A stretch of 64,000 bases of DNA from Patescibacteria group bacterium (GCA_018825385.1 JAHJEX010000071.1:1547-65546), one strand, 5' to 3'; positions 12,608 through 63,419 are shown, numbered from the stretch's first letter. Notes: generated by a model not told the origin, from the sequence alone. Program-made: numbers and translations.

Positions 12608-12927
12608 TTAGTTAGTGTTCAAATCCATGGATATTTTATTGATTAAAAAAGTAATCAAGCACACTGAGTTTATAACACCTCAATAAAAAATCGCTGAACA
12701 AACAGCGACTGAAAAAAGAAAAATAACGATTATATGCGCTATTCTATTTTTTTGTTTTGATGCAACAATACCATTACGCATAATACTATAGAATTCATAT
12801 TTCTATGTTTATTGTAACAAAAGTAATCACTTTTGTCAATTTTTAGATTAAATAATTTCAACAATATCTATAACTTTCCCGTACACTTAAGTTCTTTTTC
12901 CCAATTGAGAAATTTGTTCCAGAGACC

Positions 12928-13525
12928 CTAGAGACTGTTACTTTCATATGCCTTCTCCAGTTCCATAGCCATTGAACTAAAAAAACCAATTTTATAGAAA
13001 TATTGGTCGCGGGTTTTTTTATCAAATATTGAACGTAATCTAATTTTATTTTCTTTCATCCAAGCCGAATATTTTCCACCAGTATCATCGAGGATCGCTA
13101 CTATGCTAGAAATTTTCAATTCCCCTTTAGAATTCTTTATGAATACTTGTTTACTTGAACCAGTAGCAATTACATCGTCAACCAGTACAGCACGAGCTCC
13201 TTTTTCTATATATTCCTTCTACCAGAGCATCAGTAGAATAACCTTTAGACTTTTTTCTAATATAAACCCATGGGAGATTCAATTCCATGGCAGTAGTAGC
13301 AGCTAAACTGATCCCGCCCGTTTCGCTACCAGCTATCACTTCAATTTTCGGCTTAATTTTTTTGATTATTCGAGCAAATTCCTGCGCAATTGTTTTTAGC
13401 ACTACTGGATAAGACAAAGCAGCTTTAGGATCCCAATAGATTGGAACAATTCTTCCGGCCTTAATTTTAACGCCTGTAGTATAAAAACGTTCTTGAGCCA
13501 ATACTTCAATCGCTTTATTATTCAT
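12928..13525 (-). pseudogene. Orotate-PRTase-like phosphoribosyltransferase, split by a frameshift in an A5 run near 13178-13185 (ORFs 13178..13525 and 12928..13119)
   Basis: The N-part ends ...ALVEGIYRK. The alternative frame continues GARAVLVDDVIATGSSKQVF...SSIVAILDDTGGKY, the PRPP-binding loop. The last 5 codons come from the 32-nt comM-fragment repeat. Confidence 0.6.
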
Positions 13526-14999: not shown

Positions 15000-16562
15000 T
15001 TAAACCTTCTTAATAGTTCCTTTTTCAGCATCTACGATTACCCTATCACCGTCTTTCAAAAACAAATCACAATTACGAACCCCCACCACACATGGAATTT
15101 TCATCTCTCGTGCTACAATCGAGGTATGACAAGTCAGACCGCCCGCTCCCCCTACTAATGCAGATGCCTTTTTCATAGCCGGAACCAGATTTGGGTTGGT
15201 ATTGTGCGCCACCATAATATCCCCCTTTTTCATTTTCTTCATTTCATCAGGAATATTTATTACTTTAACTATACCTTCAACTTTTCCGGGATAGGCGCAT
15301 GTACCAATAAGTTTGTTTACATTGTTTTTAGGTTTTTGTAGTTTAATTGATTTCATGAACTGTTCAGCTTGCTTCCCTGTTATGACTTTGTTGATATATC
15401 TAGCGCTCCCCGTTCTTTTGTAATAGTCTACAGCCTTTTTTAGCCTTTCATTTAAAACATTAGCATCAACCTCGCCCTTTTTCAGTGATTCTATTATTTC
15501 GCTGGGTTTCATTGCCTGAACCTGATTTACTGAAAGTCCGAATCTTTTACCAAATTCTCTGAATATTATTTCATAATAATACATTGCATTATATAGCCCG
15601 TTTTTTCTATAACTTTTAATAAATACCATCTCTTGAGCCATTTTGAGAATATTTTTTTCATGCTCCGTAAAGCCAATTTGCCCTATAAGCTTTTTTTGCT
15701 CTTTCAACAAGTCTTGGCGATCTTTTTTCTTTTGCTCCAATACTGTTTGTGGATTACTCTGTTCGCGCAAAAACGCCTGCCAACGTGATATATAATCCTC
15801 TAGAGGATACGCCGGCCCTTTGTATTGATAGGTAAGCGGGCTATAGCGCTGATAATGACTGACAACCTTTTTGTAAATCTCTTTATCCAGATTCGCTAAA
15901 TTATTTTTCAGACCCTGAAGGCTGGACTGTATAAAAGTCTCTTTGAGTTTCCTTTTTTTACTTATATCCGATGCGATTCTTAGGAAACTTTCTTCCTCTT
16001 TTTCCAGTAAACTTTTTTTATTCGGTGATGTTAAGATCGAGAATACTTTTGATGCACTTTCTTGTATTTTGTTGCTTTCCAGCTTTTTAGCAATCAATCT
16101 TAGAATTGCTTTAGTTGTCAGTTGATCACCGGCATCAACATGCCAGCTTACAGCAGTGGCATGCCCATGACTAATCATGTGAATTTTCCATAATTCTTTC
16201 ATCAGTTTAGCGATCTGTATATCAGTCATATTCCCTAAATCCAGCTTTTCAACATTTCTCATTACTTTAAAGAATTCAGTTGTGGCAATTTCTATCCTTT
16301 TTAGGATTTTTAATGCCCATTTTGGATTTTTAATTGCCTTGTCCGAAAGAAATTTGCATTCCGCATCAAACTCCTTCTTAACGTAGATCATTTGAGAAAA
16401 ATCACCATTAAAATATGTAAGAAATTCTTTCTCAAAACTTCCAGATCCCTGTTTTGGATACACGGTATAAAAAGCAATGCTTGGAATCTCCATCATGAAC
16501 ATTGTATTTTGGGGAATATCCTCAACTGCTATGTATGTTTTTTTCGTTCTACCCTTCGTCAT
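15000..16562 (-). CDS. PEP-utilising-enzyme mobile-domain protein, paralog 8
   Basis: C-terminus GGLTCHTSIVAREMKIPCVVG...DGDRVIVDAEKGTIKKV. The N-domain has PLTYQYKGPAYP. Confidence 0.75.
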   Translation of the reverse strand: MTKGRTKKTYIAVEDIPQNTMFMMEIPSIAFYTVYPKQGSGSFEKEFLTYFNGDFSQMIYVKKEFDAECKFLSDKAIKNPKWALKILKRIEIATTEFFKVMRNVEKLDLGNMTDIQIAKLMKELWKIHMISHGHATAVSWHVDAGDQLTTKAILRLIAKKLESNKIQESASKVFSILTSPNKKSLLEKEEESFLRIASDISKKRKLKETFIQSSLQGLKNNLANLDKEIYKKVVSHYQRYSPLTYQYKGPAYPLEDYISRWQAFLREQSNPQTVLEQKKKDRQDLLKEQKKLIGQIGFTEHEKNILKMAQEMVFIKSYRKNGLYNAMYYYEIIFREFGKRFGLSVNQVQAMKPSEIIESLKKGEVDANVLNERLKKAVDYYKRTGSARYINKVITGKQAEQFMKSIKLQKPKNNVNKLIGTCAYPGKVEGIVKVINIPDEMKKMKKGDIMVAHNTNPNLVPAMKKASALVGGAGGLTCHTSIVAREMKIPCVVGVRNCDLFLKDGDRVIVDAEKGTIKKV

Positions 16563-16564
16563 AT

Positions 16565-17131
16565 TTACATCTTATCAATTTTTATTACAGAATTATTATC
16601 CAGGTAATAATTTCGAAATGAGGAGTACTTCCAGTCTTCGGACCTTTTAACCAATCCGGCACGCACAGGATTATTGTGTATGTAATCAAGCTTCTCTTCA
16701 AGATCTTTTTGGTTACGCACAACATGTTCCCAAAATTTCCCTTGGATTACTTTGCCAGAACTTACATTTGCTTTATTGTAGCTATTTGCGAATACTCCAT
16801 CTATATGATGCATTATATCAGAAACTGTTCTTTTCATAGGAGGAATTATCAGTAAGTGAATATGGTCAGGCATGATAACAAAACCTACCAGCTTAAATGC
16901 AAATTTGTTCCGACAATAACTGATAGTTTTAATGTAAAGCGCTTTAAACCTATCCGATTCGAATATTTTTCTTTTTTTATATGGATTCACTGTTATAAAG
17001 TAGCAGTGGTTTTCTAAATAAATTCTTTTCCTCATTTTTTTTATTAGTCGGACCAAACAAGATTTGGTCCTACGTCTTAAAACTAATTCTTTCTCTATTC
17101 GCTTTGCGAGCCTGCCTGCATATAGCCCCAT
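16565..17131 (-). mobile_element. IS200/IS605-family Y1 HuH transposase (TnpA) or REP-associated tyrosine transposase (RAYT)-like gene embedded in the operon
   Basis: The HuH motif reads VMPDHIHLLIIPP, with a Tyr-containing C-terminal region (SFRNYY). The stop lies 3 nt from the downstream paralog start. A 9-bp-stem hairpin sits 64-88 nt upstream of the ATG. Confidence 0.65.
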
Positions 17132-17194
17132 TTCAACTAAACAGGTAAATATCGTTTGATCTTGTATTTAAATAAGCTGGTTTTCTATTCACGT

Positions 17195-17219
17195 AGCTGA
17201 CAAATCTTGTTTGTCAGCT
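17195..17219 (-). repeat. Hairpin agctgacaa-N7-ttgtcagct upstream of tnpA; candidate IS200-type left-end subterminal hairpin
   Basis: This is a near-perfect inverted repeat read directly from the sequence. Its orientation is wrong for a terminator of the upstream minus-strand gene. Confidence 0.35.
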
Positions 17220-17346
17220 CGTTTTACTGCTATGTATGTTTTATTCATATTTTTTATTTTAACGGTGCTTGTAGTGAGTTGGGTTCTTTATGAAGTATAT
17301 GTTCTTCCCACAAAAACTAAAATAAATTATTGCTACTCTATTGCTA

Positions 17347-18036
17347 TTAAAGAATATCGCTTTTCAATGATTTCTTCCACGCCATAAACATGTTCCAATT
17401 CTTTTTGTTTTTGTGCCAGCCGGTGGGATCAGCAAGGTAGGCTTTTTGGATTGCTATCGCTTCTGGAGGCATCTTTTTCGCCCTACACACGCATTCAAGC
17501 CATTCATGCCGATTATAAAGGGTGTCAAAAGTAATTCCAATTTTCTTTAATTGCTTTTTGAATTTCTGATTTTTCATGTGCCAGGGATCATTGATAACCA
17601 TCACATGTTTTATTTTTATCCCATCTTTTGCACAATCTTTAATAGCTTTTAACACTGTACCACCCAAAGCAATTACATCATCAATCAGCACGCCAACAGC
17701 ACCTGATTGATAATCACCTTCCACCCATTTTCTGCGTAAAGTGGATTTTTTTTCTTTATTCAAGTAGGCAAAAGGTATTCTGGTTTTTAAACTTGTCGCC
17801 AGAGCAATAGGAATGCCGGCCATTGGAATTCCTACAATCAGATCTACCTTACCACTCTGGTTGTATTTTCTAATTATCTTGCCCAATTCCCCGGAAATTA
17901 TTTCAACTACTTTAGGGTGAGAGTAAAGGCATCTGCTATCGTTGTAAAATGGCACAATGGCACCGGTAGTCGTTTGATTAAAAGGACCAACATAGATTTT
18001 CATTTTAGCCACTTCTCTTAAAACCTGCTTATTCAT
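17347..18036 (-). CDS. Type I phosphoribosyltransferase (orotate-PRTase-like) with a C-terminal W-x-K-N-x3-W extension
   Basis: The PRPP loop reads VGVLIDDVIALGGTV. The C-tail has DPTGWHKNKKNWNMF. Confidence 0.6.
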   Translation of the reverse strand: MNKQVLREVAKMKIYVGPFNQTTTGAIVPFYNDSRCLYSHPKVVEIISGELGKIIRKYNQSGKVDLIVGIPMAGIPIALATSLKTRIPFAYLNKEKKSTLRRKWVEGDYQSGAVGVLIDDVIALGGTVLKAIKDCAKDGIKIKHVMVINDPWHMKNQKFKKQLKKIGITFDTLYNRHEWLECVCRAKKMPPEAIAIQKAYLADPTGWHKNKKNWNMFMAWKKSLKSDIL

Positions 18037-18038
18037 AA

Positions 18039-18791
18039 TTAAATTTTATCAAAACTCTTATCAAAAATTAAATTCTTTTCCTTTATTGCTATCTTTTTAA
18101 AATTTTTCCAATTTGCCGGATTTTTCTGCCATGCAAATGGATCATCAATTTGTTTGATAATTAGTTCGCTTAGTTCTTTGCTGATGAAATTACTTTCTGC
18201 AGCATATTTCATTAATTCTGGCCAGGTCGTAAGAGCAACAAATTTGTATTTTTTATTTTCTCTCAGCCACTGTTGTGGTTTGCGATATTTTGATCCGTAA
18301 AACGCATCTAAAATAACCACCACTCCCTTCACTTTCAATCCTACGCCCTCTAGTACTTTTACAATTTCCTTTTTATCTCCACCTCTTGATATTGCATCGT
18401 CCACAATTACTACCGTTTGGTTATTTTTGTAAACTCCTTCAATAACGCTATTAGTAGTGTACCCCTTTGGTTCTTTTCTTAGATATAGGAAATCTTTTTT
18501 TAGTTGATTGGCAACAGATACTCCATAAGGTATACCGGCTGCTTCCCTGCTGGCAATTAGATCAGGATTAAGCTTCCTGACTTCCTTCGCCATCTCCTTG
18601 GCAATAACTTGTAAAACTTCATTTTTAGAAAATGCTTTGCGATTATCTGGATATAATGGGAAATAGCCGATTCGAGGACTCTTTAGCCGACAAGCCAAAA
18701 AATACTCCTTAAATAGCAATGAGTTTGCAGCTTTTTTATTCATATTTTTATCATAATAGTTTTGGAATCTCGGCAACGATGTCTGATGCAC
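18039..18791 (-). CDS. Orotate-PRTase-like phosphoribosyltransferase with a W-x-K-N-x3-W tail
   Basis: Motifs LYLRKEPKGYTTNSVIEGVY and VVIVDDAISRGG match the PyrE type. The tail has DPFAWQKNPANWKNF. Confidence 0.65.
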   Translation of the reverse strand: MHQTSLPRFQNYYDKNMNKKAANSLLFKEYFLACRLKSPRIGYFPLYPDNRKAFSKNEVLQVIAKEMAKEVRKLNPDLIASREAAGIPYGVSVANQLKKDFLYLRKEPKGYTTNSVIEGVYKNNQTVVIVDDAISRGGDKKEIVKVLEGVGLKVKGVVVILDAFYGSKYRKPQQWLRENKKYKFVALTTWPELMKYAAESNFISKELSELIIKQIDDPFAWQKNPANWKNFKKIAIKEKNLIFDKSFDKI

Positions 18792-19542
18792 TATAATTGT
18801 ATGATACTTTTTTTAGTAGCTTGTCTGCCGCTGCTCCATTCAAGTACGGCCCTGCACAAGCCGACAAAAACAGATCATTTGTGCAAGCAAGGGCCGCAAT
18901 TAAACCGGCTAAAACATCGCCTGTTCCTCCTTTGGTCATGCCCTGATTTCCGGTTATGTTAAATTTTACTAGCTTGGGAGTGGGAGAAGCAATAATATCT
19001 TTCTTCCCTTTCAATACTATTATACACCCAAATCGCTTTGCCATCTTCCGTACATTCAGCTCAGTAGCTTTGAGACCAAAGAGTATTTCAAATTCCTTGT
19101 GGTGAGGGGTAATTATGTGATTTTTATTCAGTAAACTCATATCCACTATTTTTAAAGCATCCGCATCCAATACAAACTTTTTTTGGGGAAATTTTTTAAG
19201 AAGGGCATTTAGCAATTTTCTTTCCTTAGCAGAAGTGCCTAATCCCGGGCCAGCCAATACAACATCTGATTTAATAATATATTCTGGAATATCAATTCTT
19301 GAAATAGTAATAAATTCGAACAGTTTAGGCTTTAGTTTTTTTATTACTCCATAGTTTTCCGAATCGGAAAAAATATATACAAGGTCAACTATCTTTGACG
19401 CGATAGTTGCGGCCAGCAATAATGCTCCGTGGTATTTCTTCGACCCACCTATAATAAAAAGTGAACCATTATCTCCCTTATGCGAACCGGATTTAGGTTT
19501 ATTCAATTTAGTTATTTCGTTTTTACTGACAATATTTTTCAT
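18751..19542 (-). CDS. nnrD: ADP-dependent (S)-NAD(P)H-hydrate dehydratase (YjeF C-terminal domain)
   Basis: The motifs HKGDNGSLFIIGGSKKYHGALLLAA and GGTGDVLAGLIAALA are read from the translation. Confidence 0.65.
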   Translation of the reverse strand: MKNIVSKNEITKLNKPKSGSHKGDNGSLFIIGGSKKYHGALLLAATIASKIVDLVYIFSDSENYGVIKKLKPKLFEFITISRIDIPEYIIKSDVVLAGPGLGTSAKERKLLNALLKKFPQKKFVLDADALKIVDMSLLNKNHIITPHHKEFEILFGLKATELNVRKMAKRFGCIIVLKGKKDIIASPTPKLVKFNITGNQGMTKGGTGDVLAGLIAALACTNDLFLSACAGPYLNGAAADKLLKKVSYNYSASDIVAEIPKLL

Positions 19543-20174
19543 ATCAACTTTTTCAGGTCTTTGATATTGTTGAAAACATGAATATGGTTTGTAATATTTT
19601 CAGGGAAGATTCCTTTTTCCAACATGGCATTATAAATGCTTTCCCAAAAACTGCTGATATAAACCTCCGGCGGAATTAAGCCTTGCTTTTGACTGGATTT
19701 TACATAACCAATTGCGCCGATCATTTCATCTAATGTACCGGTACCACCTTCATACACCACGACATGCGGTGCGGAAACAATCATCATTTTGCGGGTGAAA
19801 TAGTTGCGTACAATTGCCTTCGGGCCATAGGGTATGATTTTGTGATATTCACATGCTATCCCTAACACCATATCCGGTTCTGCCTCGGCAGCCGCAATCA
19901 TGGAACCGTAGTTTTCACCCCCGTTTATAATTACTCCTCCTTTTTTTACTACATATCTTGTAAACTCCGCAACGTCTTGGTAAACCTTATCCTCTGGAGC
20001 AAATGACGCTCCACCACAAATGCTTATCACCAATCCATTGTGGACAATTTCTGCTTCAGCAGGTTTTTTTGTATTTCTAACTACACATTCTCCTTTAGAA
20101 TTTTTTACTTTGCTCTCTTGAATTACGTTTCCAGGAAGTAGCATATTGTTTTCGGGTAGTAAGGATGACGTCAT
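19539..20174 (-). CDS. LOG-family (TIGR00730, cytokinin riboside 5-monophosphate phosphoribohydrolase-like) protein
   Basis: Motifs ISICGGAS, INGGENYGSMIAAAEA and VVYEGGTGTLDEMIGAIGY match the LOG PGGxGTxxE motif. Confidence 0.65.
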   Translation of the reverse strand: MTSSLLPENNMLLPGNVIQESKVKNSKGECVVRNTKKPAEAEIVHNGLVISICGGASFAPEDKVYQDVAEFTRYVVKKGGVIINGGENYGSMIAAAEAEPDMVLGIACEYHKIIPYGPKAIVRNYFTRKMMIVSAPHVVVYEGGTGTLDEMIGAIGYVKSSQKQGLIPPEVYISSFWESIYNAMLEKGIFPENITNHIHVFNNIKDLKKLI

Positions 20175-20179
20175 CCTTA

Positions 20180-21133
20180 CTACTCCCTTGTATTAATATC
20201 TGTTAATTCATCTGTAATCAAATCTGAAAGTGAAATCACTTTCAATTGACTAAATTTTTTTTCAGGCGGTAAGGCAATGGAATCAGTTACTACAATCTCT
20301 TCGAGACCGGATTTTTTGAGCCTTTGGATTGCCGGTTCGGATAAAACTGCATGGGTAGCTGCAAAATACATTTTATTTGTACCAAGCTTTTTGAGCAATC
20401 TGACGTTTTCCACTAAAGTTCCGGCTGTGTTTATTTCATCATCAATCATCACAACATTCTTTTTTGCGATATTTGCATTTTTCCCTGATACTGTTTTTCC
20501 CGCCTTTGGTGGGACCCCGCCGTAGGCGGTGGTAAGACTGCTCACTTTATCATGCTTGATTCTAATTTTTTTCATAACTAATAATGGAAGTCCCATGTAT
20601 GATGCAAATTTTCTTGAGCGAGCAATACTCCCTTCATCCGGAGCTACTACAATATCTATATCCTTTTTACGGAAATAGTCCGCAAACAATGAAAACGTAG
20701 ATATTTCTTTAACGGGAATTTTGTAAAATCTCTTTATTGCGGGGCTATGAAGATCAATAACAACAAGTTTATCGATTTTATTCGCTTGTAACAATCTCGC
20801 AATCACCTGAGCCGATACGGCATCCCCCTTTTTAGATTCCCTTTCTTGCCTGCGGTAAGGGTAAAACGACAAAACTACTGTTATTTTTTTCGGCTTTAAC
20901 CGCTTTACTGCATCCAGAATTAAAAACAGCTCTAATACATGTTCGTCTGACGGTATAGAGCCTGATTGCAATATTATGACTTCTTTTCCCTTCACATTCT
21001 CCTGCACATTCACATATTTTTCGCCATCACTGAATTTCTTGATTATAATATTTCCCAGTTCAGTATTCATCTGCTTGGCAATTTTTTTTGCCAGAGGGAT
21101 ATTTGAAGATCCGCTAAGTATAATTTTTTTCAT
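20180..21133 (-). CDS. prs: Ribose-phosphate pyrophosphokinase (PRPP synthetase)
   Basis: VVIDLHSPAIKRFYKIPVKEIS matches the DLHA..IQGFF.IPVD region. VVMIDDEINTAGTL is the PRPP-binding loop. The length is 317 aa. Confidence 0.8.
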   Translation of the reverse strand: MKKIILSGSSNIPLAKKIAKQMNTELGNIIIKKFSDGEKYVNVQENVKGKEVIILQSGSIPSDEHVLELFLILDAVKRLKPKKITVVLSFYPYRRQERESKKGDAVSAQVIARLLQANKIDKLVVIDLHSPAIKRFYKIPVKEISTFSLFADYFRKKDIDIVVAPDEGSIARSRKFASYMGLPLLVMKKIRIKHDKVSSLTTAYGGVPPKAGKTVSGKNANIAKKNVVMIDDEINTAGTLVENVRLLKKLGTNKMYFAATHAVLSEPAIQRLKKSGLEEIVVTDSIALPPEKKFSQLKVISLSDLITDELTDINTRE

Positions 21134-21804
21134 TTGCTTGACCCGTTAAAACCTTCTGATCTGGCTATTGCCACAAATTCATCCCATTTTTTTTGATCTT
21201 TTTGCCATATTTTCAGGTTCTTCCAGATATCGTACATATAATTTGCCAGTTTTTTCGAAATATATCCGTTACTAACCATATATTTTACAAGATCATTATG
21301 CCTGACAAAAGAGTGAATAGTTATTTTATTCTTTTCATAAAAAGGAAGATGCCCAACTCCCGCATCATATAGAACCAGAACGTGGTTTACAACCAGACCT
21401 TTTTTTTGGAGCTTTTTTATAAAGCGCTCTTTCGTTTTACCGGTGCCAATTCCGTCATCTACCACCAATACATTTTCTCCTTTTCTGTACAGTCCTTCCA
21501 GCAAAGTTACTATTGAACCGTCTTTTCTTTTCTTTTGTCTAAGATAAATAAATGGTTTGTGGGAAGCAAGAGATACAGCCATAGCTAGCGGGGTTCCTGA
21601 GACCATAGTTCCAGCTACCAAATCAATGTTCTTCCCTTTCATAAACTTCGCAATCTCTTCTGATACAGCCTGCATTTTGTCTGGATGAGAGTAAAGTTTC
21701 TTGCTGGTGATGTAAATAGGAGAAGGTTCGCCAAGTGATCCATAAAACTTTCCAAAAACAAAAAAGCCAAAGTCACTTAATAATTTTGCAATCCGCTTGT
21801 TCAT
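21130..21804 (-). CDS. Orotate-PRTase-like phosphoribosyltransferase with a W-x-K-N-x3-W tail
   Basis: The core reads SIVTLLEGLYRKGENVLVVDDGIGTGKT. The tail has KIWQKDQKKWDEF. Confidence 0.65.
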   Translation of the reverse strand: MNKRIAKLLSDFGFFVFGKFYGSLGEPSPIYITSKKLYSHPDKMQAVSEEIAKFMKGKNIDLVAGTMVSGTPLAMAVSLASHKPFIYLRQKKRKDGSIVTLLEGLYRKGENVLVVDDGIGTGKTKERFIKKLQKKGLVVNHVLVLYDAGVGHLPFYEKNKITIHSFVRHNDLVKYMVSNGYISKKLANYMYDIWKNLKIWQKDQKKWDEFVAIARSEGFNGSSK

Positions 21805-48481: not shown

Positions 48482-49771
48482 TTGGTAATCTTCTTGAAAG
48501 GATTAATCTATCTCAAGAGAATACTTTTCTTTTTAGGGAAATACATTTTAGCCATACCCATACAAAAAGTAGGAAATTTTGTTTTCTATTTTTTAATTGT
48601 CAGAATGTATAAAGTATATCTCAATATTAAATCTCAGCTTGGATCAATTTACCGTCCCGCAAAAGGAAAATTTCTATATTCGCTTACTACTCGGTATGTT
48701 GTCCATGCAATAATTATTCTTCTTACAATTATTGTTACTACCAGCAATCTAAACGCTAAAGAGCTAAACACTGAAGTTGGACAGAATAATATTCTTGCTA
48801 CTCTTATTCAGCCTCAAAGTGAAGAACTGTATATGGAAACTTCCGAATCTACGACTGAGGGCAATTCAGTATTTACAGAATCGACAGGAAGCGTAGTAAG
48901 TGCACAAACTATTGGCAATGACAAGATTGCATTTGAAGAAAGTGCTTCTATTACCGCTGAGGGGGCAATTGTAAAACCTAACTTAATTGCCACTACTATT
49001 GGTGACCGTGTGCGCGAGTCTGTTATTTATCATGATGTACAACCCGGAGAAACTGTAAGTGAAATTGCATCATTGTACAAAATATCTACTAACACTATCC
49101 TTTGGGAAAATGAACTTGGTGCCAGAGACTTTATTAAGCCAGGGCAACAACTCACAATTCTACCAACCTCCGGCATTTCATATCAGATAAAGTCTGGTGA
49201 TACGCTAGAGAAAATTGCTGATAAATATGGAGTAACGGTAGATGACATAGTCGAATACAATCAACTAGCTTCTGCTGAGGCTATTTCAAAGGACCAAATT
49301 ATCCTCCTGGATGGAGGGGAACCGCCCGCACCACCCGCACCTGCAATACAGCCAAGTTCTCGTTTTGCCTCTGTTTCTGATTTCTTTGTTCCATCTAGTG
49401 CCACACCAACATATGGAACAAAACTGCAGTGGCCAACACCCAGCCATCGTATTAACCAGTACTACGGCTGGCGACACACAGGAATTGATATCGATGGCAC
49501 AACTGCATCACCAAACTACGCTGCCGATACCGGTCGTGTTATCTATTCTGGTTGGTCAGGTGGATATGGATTAATGGTGAAGGTTGATCATGGAAATGGA
49601 ATGCAGACACTTTATGGACATTTTAGCAAAATATTTGTTAATGTTGGTGATACCGTTAGTAGGGGCCAAACGTTGGGAATGATGGGTTGTACAGGTTGGT
49701 GTACTGGAAACCATCTACATTTTGAAGTGATTGTTGGCGGAAGAAAGCAAAACCCACTAAGTTATTTATAA
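48482..49771 (+). CDS. Membrane-anchored LysM-LysM-M23 metallopeptidase (cell-wall endopeptidase)
   Basis: Two LysM repeats read YHDVQPGETVSEIASLYKIS and YQIKSGDTLEKIADKYGVTV. The M23 core reads HTGIDIDG...YGHFSKIFVNVGDTVSRGQTLGMMGCTGWCTGNHLHFEV. Confidence 0.75.
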   Translation: MVIFLKGLIYLKRILFFLGKYILAIPIQKVGNFVFYFLIVRMYKVYLNIKSQLGSIYRPAKGKFLYSLTTRYVVHAIIILLTIIVTTSNLNAKELNTEVGQNNILATLIQPQSEELYMETSESTTEGNSVFTESTGSVVSAQTIGNDKIAFEESASITAEGAIVKPNLIATTIGDRVRESVIYHDVQPGETVSEIASLYKISTNTILWENELGARDFIKPGQQLTILPTSGISYQIKSGDTLEKIADKYGVTVDDIVEYNQLASAEAISKDQIILLDGGEPPAPPAPAIQPSSRFASVSDFFVPSSATPTYGTKLQWPTPSHRINQYYGWRHTGIDIDGTTASPNYAADTGRVIYSGWSGGYGLMVKVDHGNGMQTLYGHFSKIFVNVGDTVSRGQTLGMMGCTGWCTGNHLHFEVIVGGRKQNPLSYL

Positions 49772-49779
49772 ATACAAAA

Positions 49780-49818
49780 GCGCCCCCACACTTATAGTAA
49801 GCGTGGGGGCGCTTTTTT
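49780..49818 (+). terminator. Rho-independent terminator; GC-rich REP-like hairpin gcgcccccacac-ttatagtaa-gcgtgggggcgc followed by T6
   Basis: A perfect 12-bp GC-rich stem plus T-run lies immediately after the stop of the M23 gene. A near-identical element occurs at 61107-61140. Confidence 0.75.
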
Positions 49819-61043: not shown

Positions 61044-61099
61044 AAATTCCTTTGAATATGTCTTGACTATACTCTATCACAAAACGCTTTCCGAATAAA

Positions 61100-61140
61100 C
61101 CAAAACCGCCCCCACGCTTTATAATAAGTGTGGGGGCGGA
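61100..61140 (-). terminator. Rho-independent terminator of pnp; REP-like hairpin ccgcccccacgc-tttataataa-gtgtgggggcgg
   Basis: The reverse complement is near-identical to the terminator at 49780-49812. The A-run at 61100-61106 gives a T-run on the minus strand. Confidence 0.65.
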
Positions 61141-61157: not shown

Positions 61158-63419
61158 TTAGTTATGACGTCTTCTTGGAGGCCTGTCTCCTCCTCGTCCA
61201 CTATTGCTGCGAAGTCCTCTATGGTCATCACGACTGCGTTCTTCAAAGCCAGCCGGGGCCTGCAATAGTGCCTTAATAGAAAGCTCCACTCTTCCACGCT
61301 CTTTATCAACGCCCATTACCTTTACCTTAGCTATATCACCAACTTTCAATTTGTCGCTTACGGTATTCACATGTTCATGGGCAAGTTGTGAAATATGGAC
61401 CATACCGTCTTTACCATGGGCAAGTTCTACGAGAGCACCAATTTCTTTACCACTGTTGCGATCAGCAACAATCTTGATTACCTTACCTTCATACACTTCT
61501 CCAACTTCCGGATCACTGGTTACGCCTTTAATCCAATCTAGAGCTTCGTCTAGTTTGGAATCCTTATCGGCAGTAACCATTACTAACCCATCATCCTCGA
61601 TATCAATCTGAACGCCTGTTTCATCAATTATTTCGTTGATTATTTTACCGCCAGGACCAATAAGGTCGCGGATTTTGTCAGGATCGATCTGGATTGGAAC
61701 AATTTTTGGAGCATACTCAGAAAGCTCACTGCGAGCAGCCGGAATTGTTTGTTCTATAACATCTAGTATCTTTCCACGTGCTATTTTTGCTTTTTCTAAA
61801 GCGCCTTTAACAACTTCCAGTGTTAATCCGTTATTTTTGATATCGACTTGCATGGCTGTTATTCCTTTGCGGGTTCCTGCTACCTTGAAATCCATCAGAC
61901 CAATATGATCTTCCAGTCCCTGAATATCCGTAAGTAGTTTGTAGTCGGACATATCTTCGTTGGCCATCAACCCGATTGAAATACCAGCCGCTGGGCTGCT
62001 AATTGGCACACCGGCATCCATCAACGCCAAAGAAGATCCACAGATCGAAGCCTGAGAGGTTGATCCGTTTGAGGATAACACCTCAGATACCACTCGAATT
62101 GTGTAGGGGAATTTTTCTTGATCCGGTAGTAGGGGTACAATTGCTTTTTCAGCCAATGCACCGTGTCCGATTTCTCTTCTATTAGCAGACATCATTCTCT
62201 TTACTTCTCCCACTGAAAATCCAGGGAAGTTGTAATGATGCATATAGCGTTTTTTACCGGAAATTTCCATGCCATCCAGTAGCTGTTCATCGCCCGGAGA
62301 TCCCAGTGTTACTACTGACAATACTTGAGTTTCACCACGATTAAACAATCCTGTTCCATGGGTTCTAGGAAGTATTCCCACTTCAGCTGAAAGTGAACGA
62401 ATATCATCAACACCTCTGCCATCCGGTCTGATACCTTCTTCCAGAATCTTTTTGCAGGCTATGTCGTCAATAATTCCTTCAACCATTTTCAAGCCTTTAA
62501 CTCTGCCTTCTTTAGTTACTTTGTTGTCCTCTTTCAGAGTTTCTTCCAGCTCATCCATGAGAGTTTGCATAGCTTTCTTTTGAGCGTCTTTTTCTTTTTC
62601 TGCAAAAACTTTACTACCATTCTCAGTAGTATATTTCTTTACAATTTCTTCTACATGCTCGGCCTCTTTCTTTTCTTCCTCGTTTGGCTCACCGTATTCC
62701 AGTAACATTTTTTCTTTACCAATCTTCTTTTGGACATCATTGATAAAGGTCATTAATCCTTCAATATGCTCATGACCAAAGTTAACTGCATCCTCTACTG
62801 TTTTTTCGTCAACTTCTTTACCTTCAAATTCGATCATTGCTACACGGTCTTCTATCCCTACTAGCAATAGTTCGAATGGACTTTTTTCCGCTACTTCATA
62901 AGTTGGGTTCAATACCCACTCACCATCAACTTGCACTACCTTTACACCAGCTATCGGCCCATTCCAAGGAATAGGTGAAATGCCTAGTGCGCATGATGCG
63001 GCAAGTAGCGAAACGAAATCAGGATCGTTTTCCTGATCAACTGAAAGCACAGTCAGTACCACTTGTACTTCGTGCTTCATACCTTCTGCAAAGAAAGGCC
63101 GAATTGAACGATCAATAAGACGTGCAGTTAATACCGCTTCGTCTGTCGGCCTGCCTTCACGTTTTATAAACCGAGATCCTTTGATTTTGCCGGCGGCATA
63201 CATCTTTTCTTCGTAATCTACGGTTAACGGGAAAAACCCCCGATCTTCATCATAGTCGGGATTAATTACCGCAGTAGCCAAAACAACAGTATCTCCATAC
63301 TGAATGGTACAGCTACCGTGTGCTTGACCGGCAAGTCTGCCGGTCTCTAGGGAGAGTTTTGTTCCCCCAATCTCTGTCTCAAACGTTTGCACGCCAGAAG
63401 AGCTTGTTTTTGGATTCAT
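61158..63419 (-). CDS. pnp: Polyribonucleotide nucleotidyltransferase (PNPase)
   Basis: Two RNase PH-like domains, then KH (LIGPGGKIINEI) and S1 (GKVIKIVADRNSGKEIGALVEL...) domains. The length is 753 aa. Confidence 0.85.
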   Translation of the reverse strand: MNPKTSSSGVQTFETEIGGTKLSLETGRLAGQAHGSCTIQYGDTVVLATAVINPDYDEDRGFFPLTVDYEEKMYAAGKIKGSRFIKREGRPTDEAVLTARLIDRSIRPFFAEGMKHEVQVVLTVLSVDQENDPDFVSLLAASCALGISPIPWNGPIAGVKVVQVDGEWVLNPTYEVAEKSPFELLLVGIEDRVAMIEFEGKEVDEKTVEDAVNFGHEHIEGLMTFINDVQKKIGKEKMLLEYGEPNEEEKKEAEHVEEIVKKYTTENGSKVFAEKEKDAQKKAMQTLMDELEETLKEDNKVTKEGRVKGLKMVEGIIDDIACKKILEEGIRPDGRGVDDIRSLSAEVGILPRTHGTGLFNRGETQVLSVVTLGSPGDEQLLDGMEISGKKRYMHHYNFPGFSVGEVKRMMSANRREIGHGALAEKAIVPLLPDQEKFPYTIRVVSEVLSSNGSTSQASICGSSLALMDAGVPISSPAAGISIGLMANEDMSDYKLLTDIQGLEDHIGLMDFKVAGTRKGITAMQVDIKNNGLTLEVVKGALEKAKIARGKILDVIEQTIPAARSELSEYAPKIVPIQIDPDKIRDLIGPGGKIINEIIDETGVQIDIEDDGLVMVTADKDSKLDEALDWIKGVTSDPEVGEVYEGKVIKIVADRNSGKEIGALVELAHGKDGMVHISQLAHEHVNTVSDKLKVGDIAKVKVMGVDKERGRVELSIKALLQAPAGFEERSRDDHRGLRSNSGRGGDRPPRRRHN

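Follow-up and report, generated by a model that had tools for sequence, protein, structure and literature searches.

Genes and features of the locus

The DNA analysed here (the window, 64,000 nucleotides) comes from a Patescibacteria group bacterium. On its minus strand, an open reading frame (ORF) of 188 aa (16565-17131) encodes the sequence VMPDHIHLL, and its stop codon (TAA, 16565-16567) is followed after 2 nt by the ATG (16562) of the next gene (15000-16562, minus strand). The initial annotation of this DNA had correctly seen that the two genes nearly abut, although it gave the distance as 3 nt. The ORF and the elements discussed with it are as follows.

16565..17035, minus strand: RAYT (TnpA-REP) coding sequence in its likely extent, 156 aa and stop codon; homologues begin at the same Met
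17036..17131, minus strand: upstream region, probably untranslated 5' sequence, added to the ORF by gene callers as 32 extra codons; contains REP-B
17050..17073, minus strand (the sense strand of the RAYT gene): REP-B, type 2 stem, GTAG (17073-17070) followed by GGACCAAA / TCTTG / TTTGGTCC
17074..17192: spacer between REP-B and REP-A, 119 nt, without recognisable feature on reading of the sequence
17193..17219, plus strand: REP-A, type 1 stem, GTAG (17193-17196) followed by AGCTGACAAA / TCTTG / TTTGTCAGCT
49780..49818, plus strand: GC-rich hairpin (palindrome 49780-49812) and T6, in terminator position after ORF 48482-49771
61090..61139, minus strand: near-copy of the GC-rich hairpin (61106-61139), then TTTTGGTTTATT, in terminator position

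Four short contigs, which come from three sequencing runs, encode exactly this RAYT protein; their DNA is 100% identical, and the gene has the same neighbours in each. Around it, a very large and old paralog array extends over 678-22697, in which about nine regions homologous to 'PEP-utilising enzyme mobile domain' proteins and at least five orotate-PRTase-like genes are interleaved with a PRPP synthase, a LOG-like gene (Lysine_decarbox family) and a Carb_kinase-family gene. One PRTase paralog (12886-13525, minus strand) is read in two frames, as an ORF at 13178-13525 and a tblastn continuation at 12886-13260, which is probably a frameshift, a pseudogene or an assembly error. Another is a 250-aa ORF with a GTG start (18039-18791, minus strand) that probably begins at Met17 (MNKKAA...), as does its 76%-identical orthologue in the related locus L155.

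Two further elements of the array are not genes. A perfect 28-nt palindrome without a loop, GTAGTAAGGATGAC|GTCATCCTTACTAC (20156-20183), spans the stop codon of the PRPP-synthase-like gene (20180-21133, minus strand) and the ATG of the next gene (19539-20174, minus strand); a perfect 14+14 palindrome would by no means be expected by chance in 64 kb, and the element could bind a protein or act as a hairpin in translational coupling. Upstream of the PRTase gene 21130-21804 (minus strand), the intergenic segment 21911-21973 holds a 16-nt perfect inverted repeat, TGACGAAGCAATCCCG ... CGGGATTGCTTCGTCA, with its arms 31 nt apart, followed by a small CCCGCATATGCGGG hairpin; it has no Rfam match and may be an uncharacterised leader or regulatory RNA. 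A tRNA scan and an Rfam scan of the whole 64-kb window returned no tRNA gene and no Rfam family. GC skew is negative throughout the window, and most large ORFs are on the minus strand in the stretches for which ORFs were listed.

The transposase gene encodes a predicted RAYT

The 188-aa reading of the gene is probably too long. Among homologues of non-identical sequence, the closest (P0002-P0004, 61-70% identical, 155-158 aa) cover 82-83% of the query and their alignments begin at Met33, and the N-terminal extension is absent from every homologue of less than 96% identity. In four related loci (L005, L011, L129, and L138) the position upstream of the RAYT ATG is occupied by a REP. Because the homologues align from Met33 and a REP hairpin lies within the first 32 codons, 17035 was taken as the likely start, which would give a protein of 156 aa (16565-17035). 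The ORF and the HuH motif that were initially described are thus present, whereas the length is probably 156 aa, and the annotation should read 156-aa RAYT instead of 188-aa "transposase".

By profile search, the ORF scores 129.6 bits with the NCBIfam model NF047646 (REP_Tyr_transpos; cut-off 80) and 34.2 bits, below threshold, with the IS200/IS605 model NF033573 (cut-off 55); it also matches Pfam Y1_Tnp (E 4e-12). The best match in the PDB by sequence (phmmer) is 4er8, the TnpA-REP of E. coli, at 3e-16, followed by archaeal IS200-type transposases at E > 1e-3. In this alignment, DYIHNNP of the query lies on DYIYINP of 4er8, which places the Tyr on Y115 and the Asn on N119. The HuH residues are His58 and His60 and the catalytic tyrosine is Tyr118 (His90, His92, and Tyr150 in the 188-aa numbering). 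His58, His60, Tyr118, His120, Asn122, and Pro123 are invariant among 26 homologues, down to ~32% identity.

An AlphaFold2 model built from 24 homologues (pLDDT 92.8) has 4er8_A as its top Foldseek match (E 6.4e-11, TMq 0.79), and the TnpA chains of IS200, IS608, and ISDra2 follow with TMq 0.50-0.61. In E. coli TnpA-REP, W94, Q95, E100, H101, and R104 contact the GTAG, and N119 is essential for transposition (PMC6006769). Aligned on 4er8, Q95, E100, H101, R104, and N119 are identical in the query, and W94 is replaced by Ile, so that four of the five GTAG-contact residues are kept. Judged from sequence and modelled fold, the ORF is a real gene for a putative RAYT/TnpA-REP and not for an IS200 transposase. 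These results bear out the suggestion of the initial annotation that this is a domesticated HuH/Y1 enzyme of RAYT type, and the catalytic Tyr, the position of which it had asked to be checked, aligns with that of 4er8. By tblastn, the window contains one copy of the gene, and each fetched locus of a relative likewise contains one RAYT. The protein type is routinely annotated, for JGI names the proteins of relatives "REP element-mobilizing transposase RayT".

Two inverted REPs precede the RAYT gene

REPs recognised by RAYTs are defined by their layout, with a GT[AG]G tetranucleotide on the 5' side of the hairpin foot (PMC3479197; PMC6006769). The hairpin at 17195-17219, to which a 9-bp stem had been ascribed, is real; its stem is 10 bp, with a loop of 5 nt, and as single-stranded DNA it folds with -11.8 kcal/mol (z = -6.9 relative to shuffles). 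It is a canonical REP (REP-A), and a second, inverted REP (REP-B, 17050-17073), overlooked in the first reading, is hidden in the over-extended ORF. The hairpin of REP-B (17050-17070) folds with -8.3 kcal/mol (z -3.9) and ends 14 nt before the likely RAYT ATG. Both hairpins carry a 5' GTAG.

REP-A and REP-B are mutually inverted, with their GTAG heads facing each other over the spacer. Read on the RAYT strand, the upstream DNA is GAG-CTGACAAACAAGATTTGTCAG-CTACGTG, 119 nt, ACGTAG-GACCAAATCTTGTTTGGTC-C, 14 nt, ATG. An exact 13-mer, CAAACAAGATTTG, is common to the two in inverted orientation and has no third exact copy in 64 kb. Their shared architecture is a 5' (C)GTAG, the 'guide' tetranucleotide, at the foot of a perfect hairpin of 8-10 bp, in which the upper stem with the loop (AAA-TCTTG-TTT) is nearly invariant and the lower stem is variable. 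The hairpin that had been taken for an IS200 left end is instead one of two head-to-head, GTAG-tagged REPs, the arrangement of a REPtron.

A covariance model of the family (R1, described below) scores REP-A with 48.9 bits (E 3e-12) and REP-B with 36.4 bits (E 1.6e-8), and finds no further REP in the window at E < 0.01 with filters off. Downstream of the RAYT gene, in the 2-nt gap before the next ATG, there is neither a REP nor a right end. The REPs have therefore not spread in this window: there are two copies in 64 kb, and both are next to the gene. Two other candidate structures were rejected. An AT-rich inverted repeat at 16584-16619, considered as a right end, is only 80% complementary and lies inside the coding sequence, and folding of 17036-17232 gives two separate stable hairpins only, not a long hairpin of the REPIN type made of REP-A and REP-B.

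The REP family in related genomes

REPs of this family also accompany RAYT homologues (44-70% identity) in seven other loci.

L005 and L007: RAYT 61% identical; two clear REP copies, upstream
L009: RAYT 63% identical; eleven copies (E < 1e-7), of which six precede and five follow the gene, all within ~260 nt
L011: RAYT 70% identical; one copy 23 nt before the ATG, where the contig begins
L129 (a Patescibacteria MAG, JBIOWE01): RAYT 44% identical; three REPs upstream and one, inverted, downstream
L138: RAYT 69% identical; type-1/type-2 order upstream, as in the window
L145: RAYT 60% identical; seven copies, on both sides

The CAAATCTTGTTTG hairpin adjoins the RAYT in every examined locus of the sub-clade to which the window RAYT belongs, and no fetched RAYT locus has its REPs farther than ~300 nt from the gene. 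R1 was built from 14 aligned REP copies, among which the 11-nt core AAATCTTGTTT is invariant save for one copy without the loop G, and conservation extends to the (C)GCGTAG head, whose A and G never vary. The lower stem is the part that varies, and its three variable inner pairs covary. Over six inner stem pairs in the 14 copies, 97.6% of cells are paired, with 13 double-sided changes; the covariation score was reached in 0 of 500 shuffles, and slid controls were 24-60% paired. The cognate repeat of the RAYT is thus the GTAG-CAAATCTTGTTTG hairpin and not the GC-rich terminators discussed below.

A metagenome scan with the pattern CGCGTAG-N4-5-AAATCTTGTTT returned 23 stretches, seven of them with high-scoring REPs. 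Two of the seven carry a RAYT (L138 and L145), and the other five hold an inverted doublet with no RAYT match by tblastn in the fetched stretch. Three of these doublets (L135, L146, and L154) are situated between long ORFs, with more than 850 nt of fetched DNA on either side, and the other two (L152 and L153) lie near a contig end. A doublet consists of a type-1 stem (GCTGA[C/T]AAA) and a type-2 stem (G[G/A][G/A][C/T]CAAA) in L009, L138, L145, L152, L153, and L154, the pairing being counted only in loci where both stems could be classed, and the two are oriented head-to-head or tail-to-tail. Since inverted doublets occur without a RAYT in the fetched DNA of relatives, the REP family has spread in relatives. 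A scan of a genome collection of 596 Gb with GTAGN{4,5}AAATCTTGTTT was too unspecific because only 15 bases are specified, and among the matches listed almost all were due to chance, with one real locus (L129).

More distant RAYTs (L159 and L160, 40-43% identity) are accompanied by other hairpin families, again as inverted doublets of two types. These are textbook REPtrons of Patescibacteria RAYTs (L159, 2780-3000 and 3510-3600; L160, 1420-1480 and 2020-2140); in one doublet GGTGGAGATGGGGATCTCCACC-CTACGCG is paired with CGCGTAG-GCGGGAATCCCTATTCCCGCC. The head is CGCGTAG in L159 and CCGTAG in L160; that of L159 matches the family in the window, whereas the hairpins are unrelated. The usual pattern is one REP family per RAYT lineage, and both loci fit it. 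REPs are usually described as species-specific; here, RAYTs of 44-70% identity share one AT-rich core, and the genomes concerned have 38% and 52% GC. Canonical GTAG-REP/RAYT systems with BIME-like doublets of two stem types exist in the ultra-small genomes of the CPR. In the literature surveyed, no paper linking RAYTs or REPs with Patescibacteria was found, and the REP family itself may be undescribed. R1 could serve to count REPs in complete, streamlined Patescibacteria genomes.

GC-rich hairpins at 49780 and 61106

The near-identical GC-rich palindromes that the initial annotation had singled out are present at 49780-49812 and, 11 kb away on the opposite strand, at 61106-61139. With one of them reverse-complemented, they are near-identical even in the loop. 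The first begins 8 nt after the stop codon of ORF 48482-49771 (plus strand), is followed by T6 and was flagged by a terminator scan. The second, read on the minus strand, begins 18 nt after the stop codon of ORF 61158-63419 (minus strand) and is followed by TTTTGGTTTATT; the simple scan missed it, probably because its loop is 10 nt.

These CCCCCAC hairpins had been proposed as the REP family that the RAYT mobilises, and two such similar copies in an AT-rich window are indeed not expected by chance (0 matches to the pattern in shuffles). However, neither copy has a GTAG at either foot, both stand 8-18 nt past a stop codon and before a T-run on the strand of the gene, and neither is adjacent to the RAYT. 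No further copy was found elsewhere in the window, in the fetched related loci or in the flanks of RAYTs, and the hairpin that flanks the RAYT and its homologues is another one, tagged with GTAG. That these hairpins are RAYT substrates is accordingly hardly credible. Since they lack GTAG, lie just past stop codons and precede T-runs, the best reading is an intrinsic-terminator module present in two copies and unrelated to the RAYT system. Two unrelated genes share this module, and the near-identity of its copies has no link to the RAYT.

The intergenic slot and the paralog array

The arrangement of the paralog array is conserved in three related loci (L155, L157, and L158), none of which has a RAYT at the corresponding site. 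In L155, where the PEP-utiliser is 74% identical, the orthologue of the 250-aa PRTase (76%) overlaps the PEP-utiliser start by 4 nt. In L157, the order is the orthologue of the 229-aa PRTase (77% identical), tRNA-Arg(CCG), and the PEP-utiliser, and the slot in L158 likewise holds tRNA-Arg(CCG). The slots of L155-L158 contain no REP remnant at E < 0.5; one L157 hairpin, GCTCAAATTAGATTTGAGC, looks similar by eye and obtained no score. RAYT homologues of similar divergence sit in unrelated neighbourhoods. The tetranucleotide correlation between L005, where the RAYT is elsewhere, and L155, where the site is empty, is 0.95 with similar GC, a value that does not discriminate the same from a different organism. 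Comparison with relatives, in which the slot is empty or occupied by a tRNA-Arg, marks the REP-REP-RAYT unit as an insertion; the intergenic slot that it occupies varies from relative to relative. The unit either relocates or is lost and regained.

As a separate observation, L155 contains at 15330-15551 a different Y1_Tnp gene (179 aa) after another PEP-utiliser paralog, a second case, beside that of the window, of a Y1 gene lodged in this paralog array. Its first 51 aa have no tblastn similarity to the window RAYT, and two other small hairpins, ATAAACC-TTT-AGGTTTAT and GTAAAGC-TAA-AGCTTTAC, lie ahead of it.

A unit that is missing from the orthologous site in relatives, with a Y1_Tnp protein and a hairpin upstream of the gene, might also be an IS200/IS605-type insertion sequence, possibly decayed, with the 17195 hairpin as the subterminal hairpin of its left end and with loss of the right end. 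Several observations make this highly improbable. The protein scores 34 bits against the IS200 cut-off of 55 and well above the cut-off of the RAYT model, and no IS200/IS608 TnpA comes as near to its predicted fold as 4er8 does. The gene occurs once in 64 kb and once in each locus fetched from relatives, and no tnpB accompanies it. Both hairpins are upstream of the gene, with no left and right ends that bracket it and only 2 nt after its stop codon. Finally, the hairpins carry a 5' GTAG, combine two stem types in inverted pairs, and are also met as doublets in fetched DNA that gave no RAYT match. It had been argued from the outset that there is no room for a right end and that this is not a simple IS insertion. 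Both points hold, given the 2-nt gap and the model scores on either side of their cut-offs, though the gene does occupy an intergenic slot.

An involvement of the RAYT in duplication or rearrangement of the paralog array, which had also been suggested, is without support. The paralogs of the window are mutually only 25-35% identical and the arrays are present in relatives without a RAYT; therefore, no link between the RAYT and duplication can be drawn, and the gene gives no evidence for transposase-driven shuffling of the PRTase/PEP-utiliser array.

A probable minimal REPtron and its possible activity

The locus is very probably a minimal REPtron, that is, a RAYT gene present once in the window with two cognate REPs immediately upstream, in a Patescibacteria (CPR) genome; it is called minimal because the 64-kb window holds only two REP copies. 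By analogy with E. coli TnpA-REP (PMC3479197; PMC3333891), a RAYT monomer would bind the single-stranded REP hairpin together with its GTAG, and Tyr118 would cut and rejoin the single-stranded DNA through a 5'-phosphotyrosine, with a metal ion presumably held by His58 and His60. Chemistry of this kind is thought to spread REP doublets through the genome. On the same analogy, we infer that the window copy may be active and mobilise REPs. The lack of a REP downstream of the gene and the presence of only two in 64 kb count against this, for they mean that the genome fragment gives no sign of REP proliferation. The Ile in place of W94, a GTAG-contact residue in E. coli, likewise tells against it.

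A variant of the RAYT with 96% identity (L010) differs by seven non-synonymous and three synonymous changes, including L128F at a nearly invariant column; these small numbers are compatible with relaxed constraint. Over 16486-17392 there are 13 differences between L010 and the window, all downstream of RAYT codon 38, and none in the 471 nt that run from the end of the PRTase gene over the two REPs into the 5' part of the RAYT gene. This pattern points either to a recombination mosaic or to a strongly conserved REP region.

The 7:3 ratio, and the fact that the REPs have not spread in the window, would also suit a RAYT that is a decaying or inactive relic, with hairpins that now serve only as cis-regulatory or mRNA-stability elements of the operon. 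A hairpin such as REP-B, 14 nt before the ATG, could affect translation, and REP hairpins have been discussed as down-regulating RAYT expression (PMC3733652). The ORF is intact with all catalytic residues, however, four assemblies, derived from three sequencing runs, agree fully in its DNA, and the clade retains the motifs down to ~32% identity. Moreover, the doublets without a nearby RAYT in relatives imply activity, at least in the recent past. We therefore consider a relic improbable and retain the minimal REPtron as the preferred reading.

A further, rather doubtful possibility is that the locus represents an undescribed Patescibacteria REP/RAYT lineage, in which the CGCGTAG head and the AAATCTTGTTT core are kept while the whole REPtron relocates or is exchanged between CPR genomes. 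The neighbourhood of the REPtron differs in every relative with readable neighbouring genes, and the REPtron appears to change its chromosomal position faster than the host gene order changes. The usual view is that REPtrons do not move as a unit. Were the possibility true, the RAYT-plus-REP unit itself would move or pass between CPR genomes, against that view.

Comparison with known systems

REPtrons are well described and the RAYT protein type is already known; the main value of this locus lies in the correction of the annotation, of the cognate repeat, and of the idea of array shuffling. Its closest characterised counterpart is E. coli TnpA-REP (RAYT, yafM; PDB 4ER8; PMC3479197; PMC3333891), the best match in both sequence and fold, with which the window RAYT shares the core of HuH and Tyr, the Y-x-x-x-N-P helix and most of the residues that contact GTAG, although the identity in the structural alignment is only ~26%. 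As in the E. coli REPtron with its BIMEs, a 5' GTAG stands at the hairpin foot, two REP stem types occur in inverted pairs, reminiscent of the Y and Z REPs, and there is one gene copy, here in the sequence available. On the other hand, the long, GC-rich REPs of E. coli pair imperfectly and contain a bulge that binding requires, whereas those of the window are short, AT-rich, and perfectly paired, with a 5-nt loop. E. coli has hundreds of REPs per genome, and the window has two in 64 kb, only upstream of the gene.

REPtrons lacking an abundant REP family have been described earlier (Di Nocera et al. 2013, PMC3733652). They resemble the present locus in combining a RAYT with a few GTAG hairpins and no abundant family in the sequence available, with the difference that the comparison here spans 64 kb and that relatives carry doublets elsewhere.

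The RAYTs of Pseudomonas and Stenotrophomonas (Group 3 of Bertels, subclass 2.5 of Quentin; PMC5581495; PMC6006769) are likewise associated with short-hairpin REPs that have GTAG at or near the foot, and their REPs and REPINs are dispersed as inverted doublets in intergenic DNA. Unlike the arms of those REPINs, the arms of the doublet in the window have different stems and fold separately, forming no long REPIN hairpin, and the host is a Patescibacteria genome. The TnpA proteins of IS200/IS605 elements (IS608 and ISDra2) share the superfamily and the chemistry with the window RAYT, as well as subterminal single-stranded DNA hairpins with a guide tetranucleotide. They differ in that the window RAYT falls below the IS200 cut-off and has no pair of left and right ends, no tnpB, and one copy in the window.
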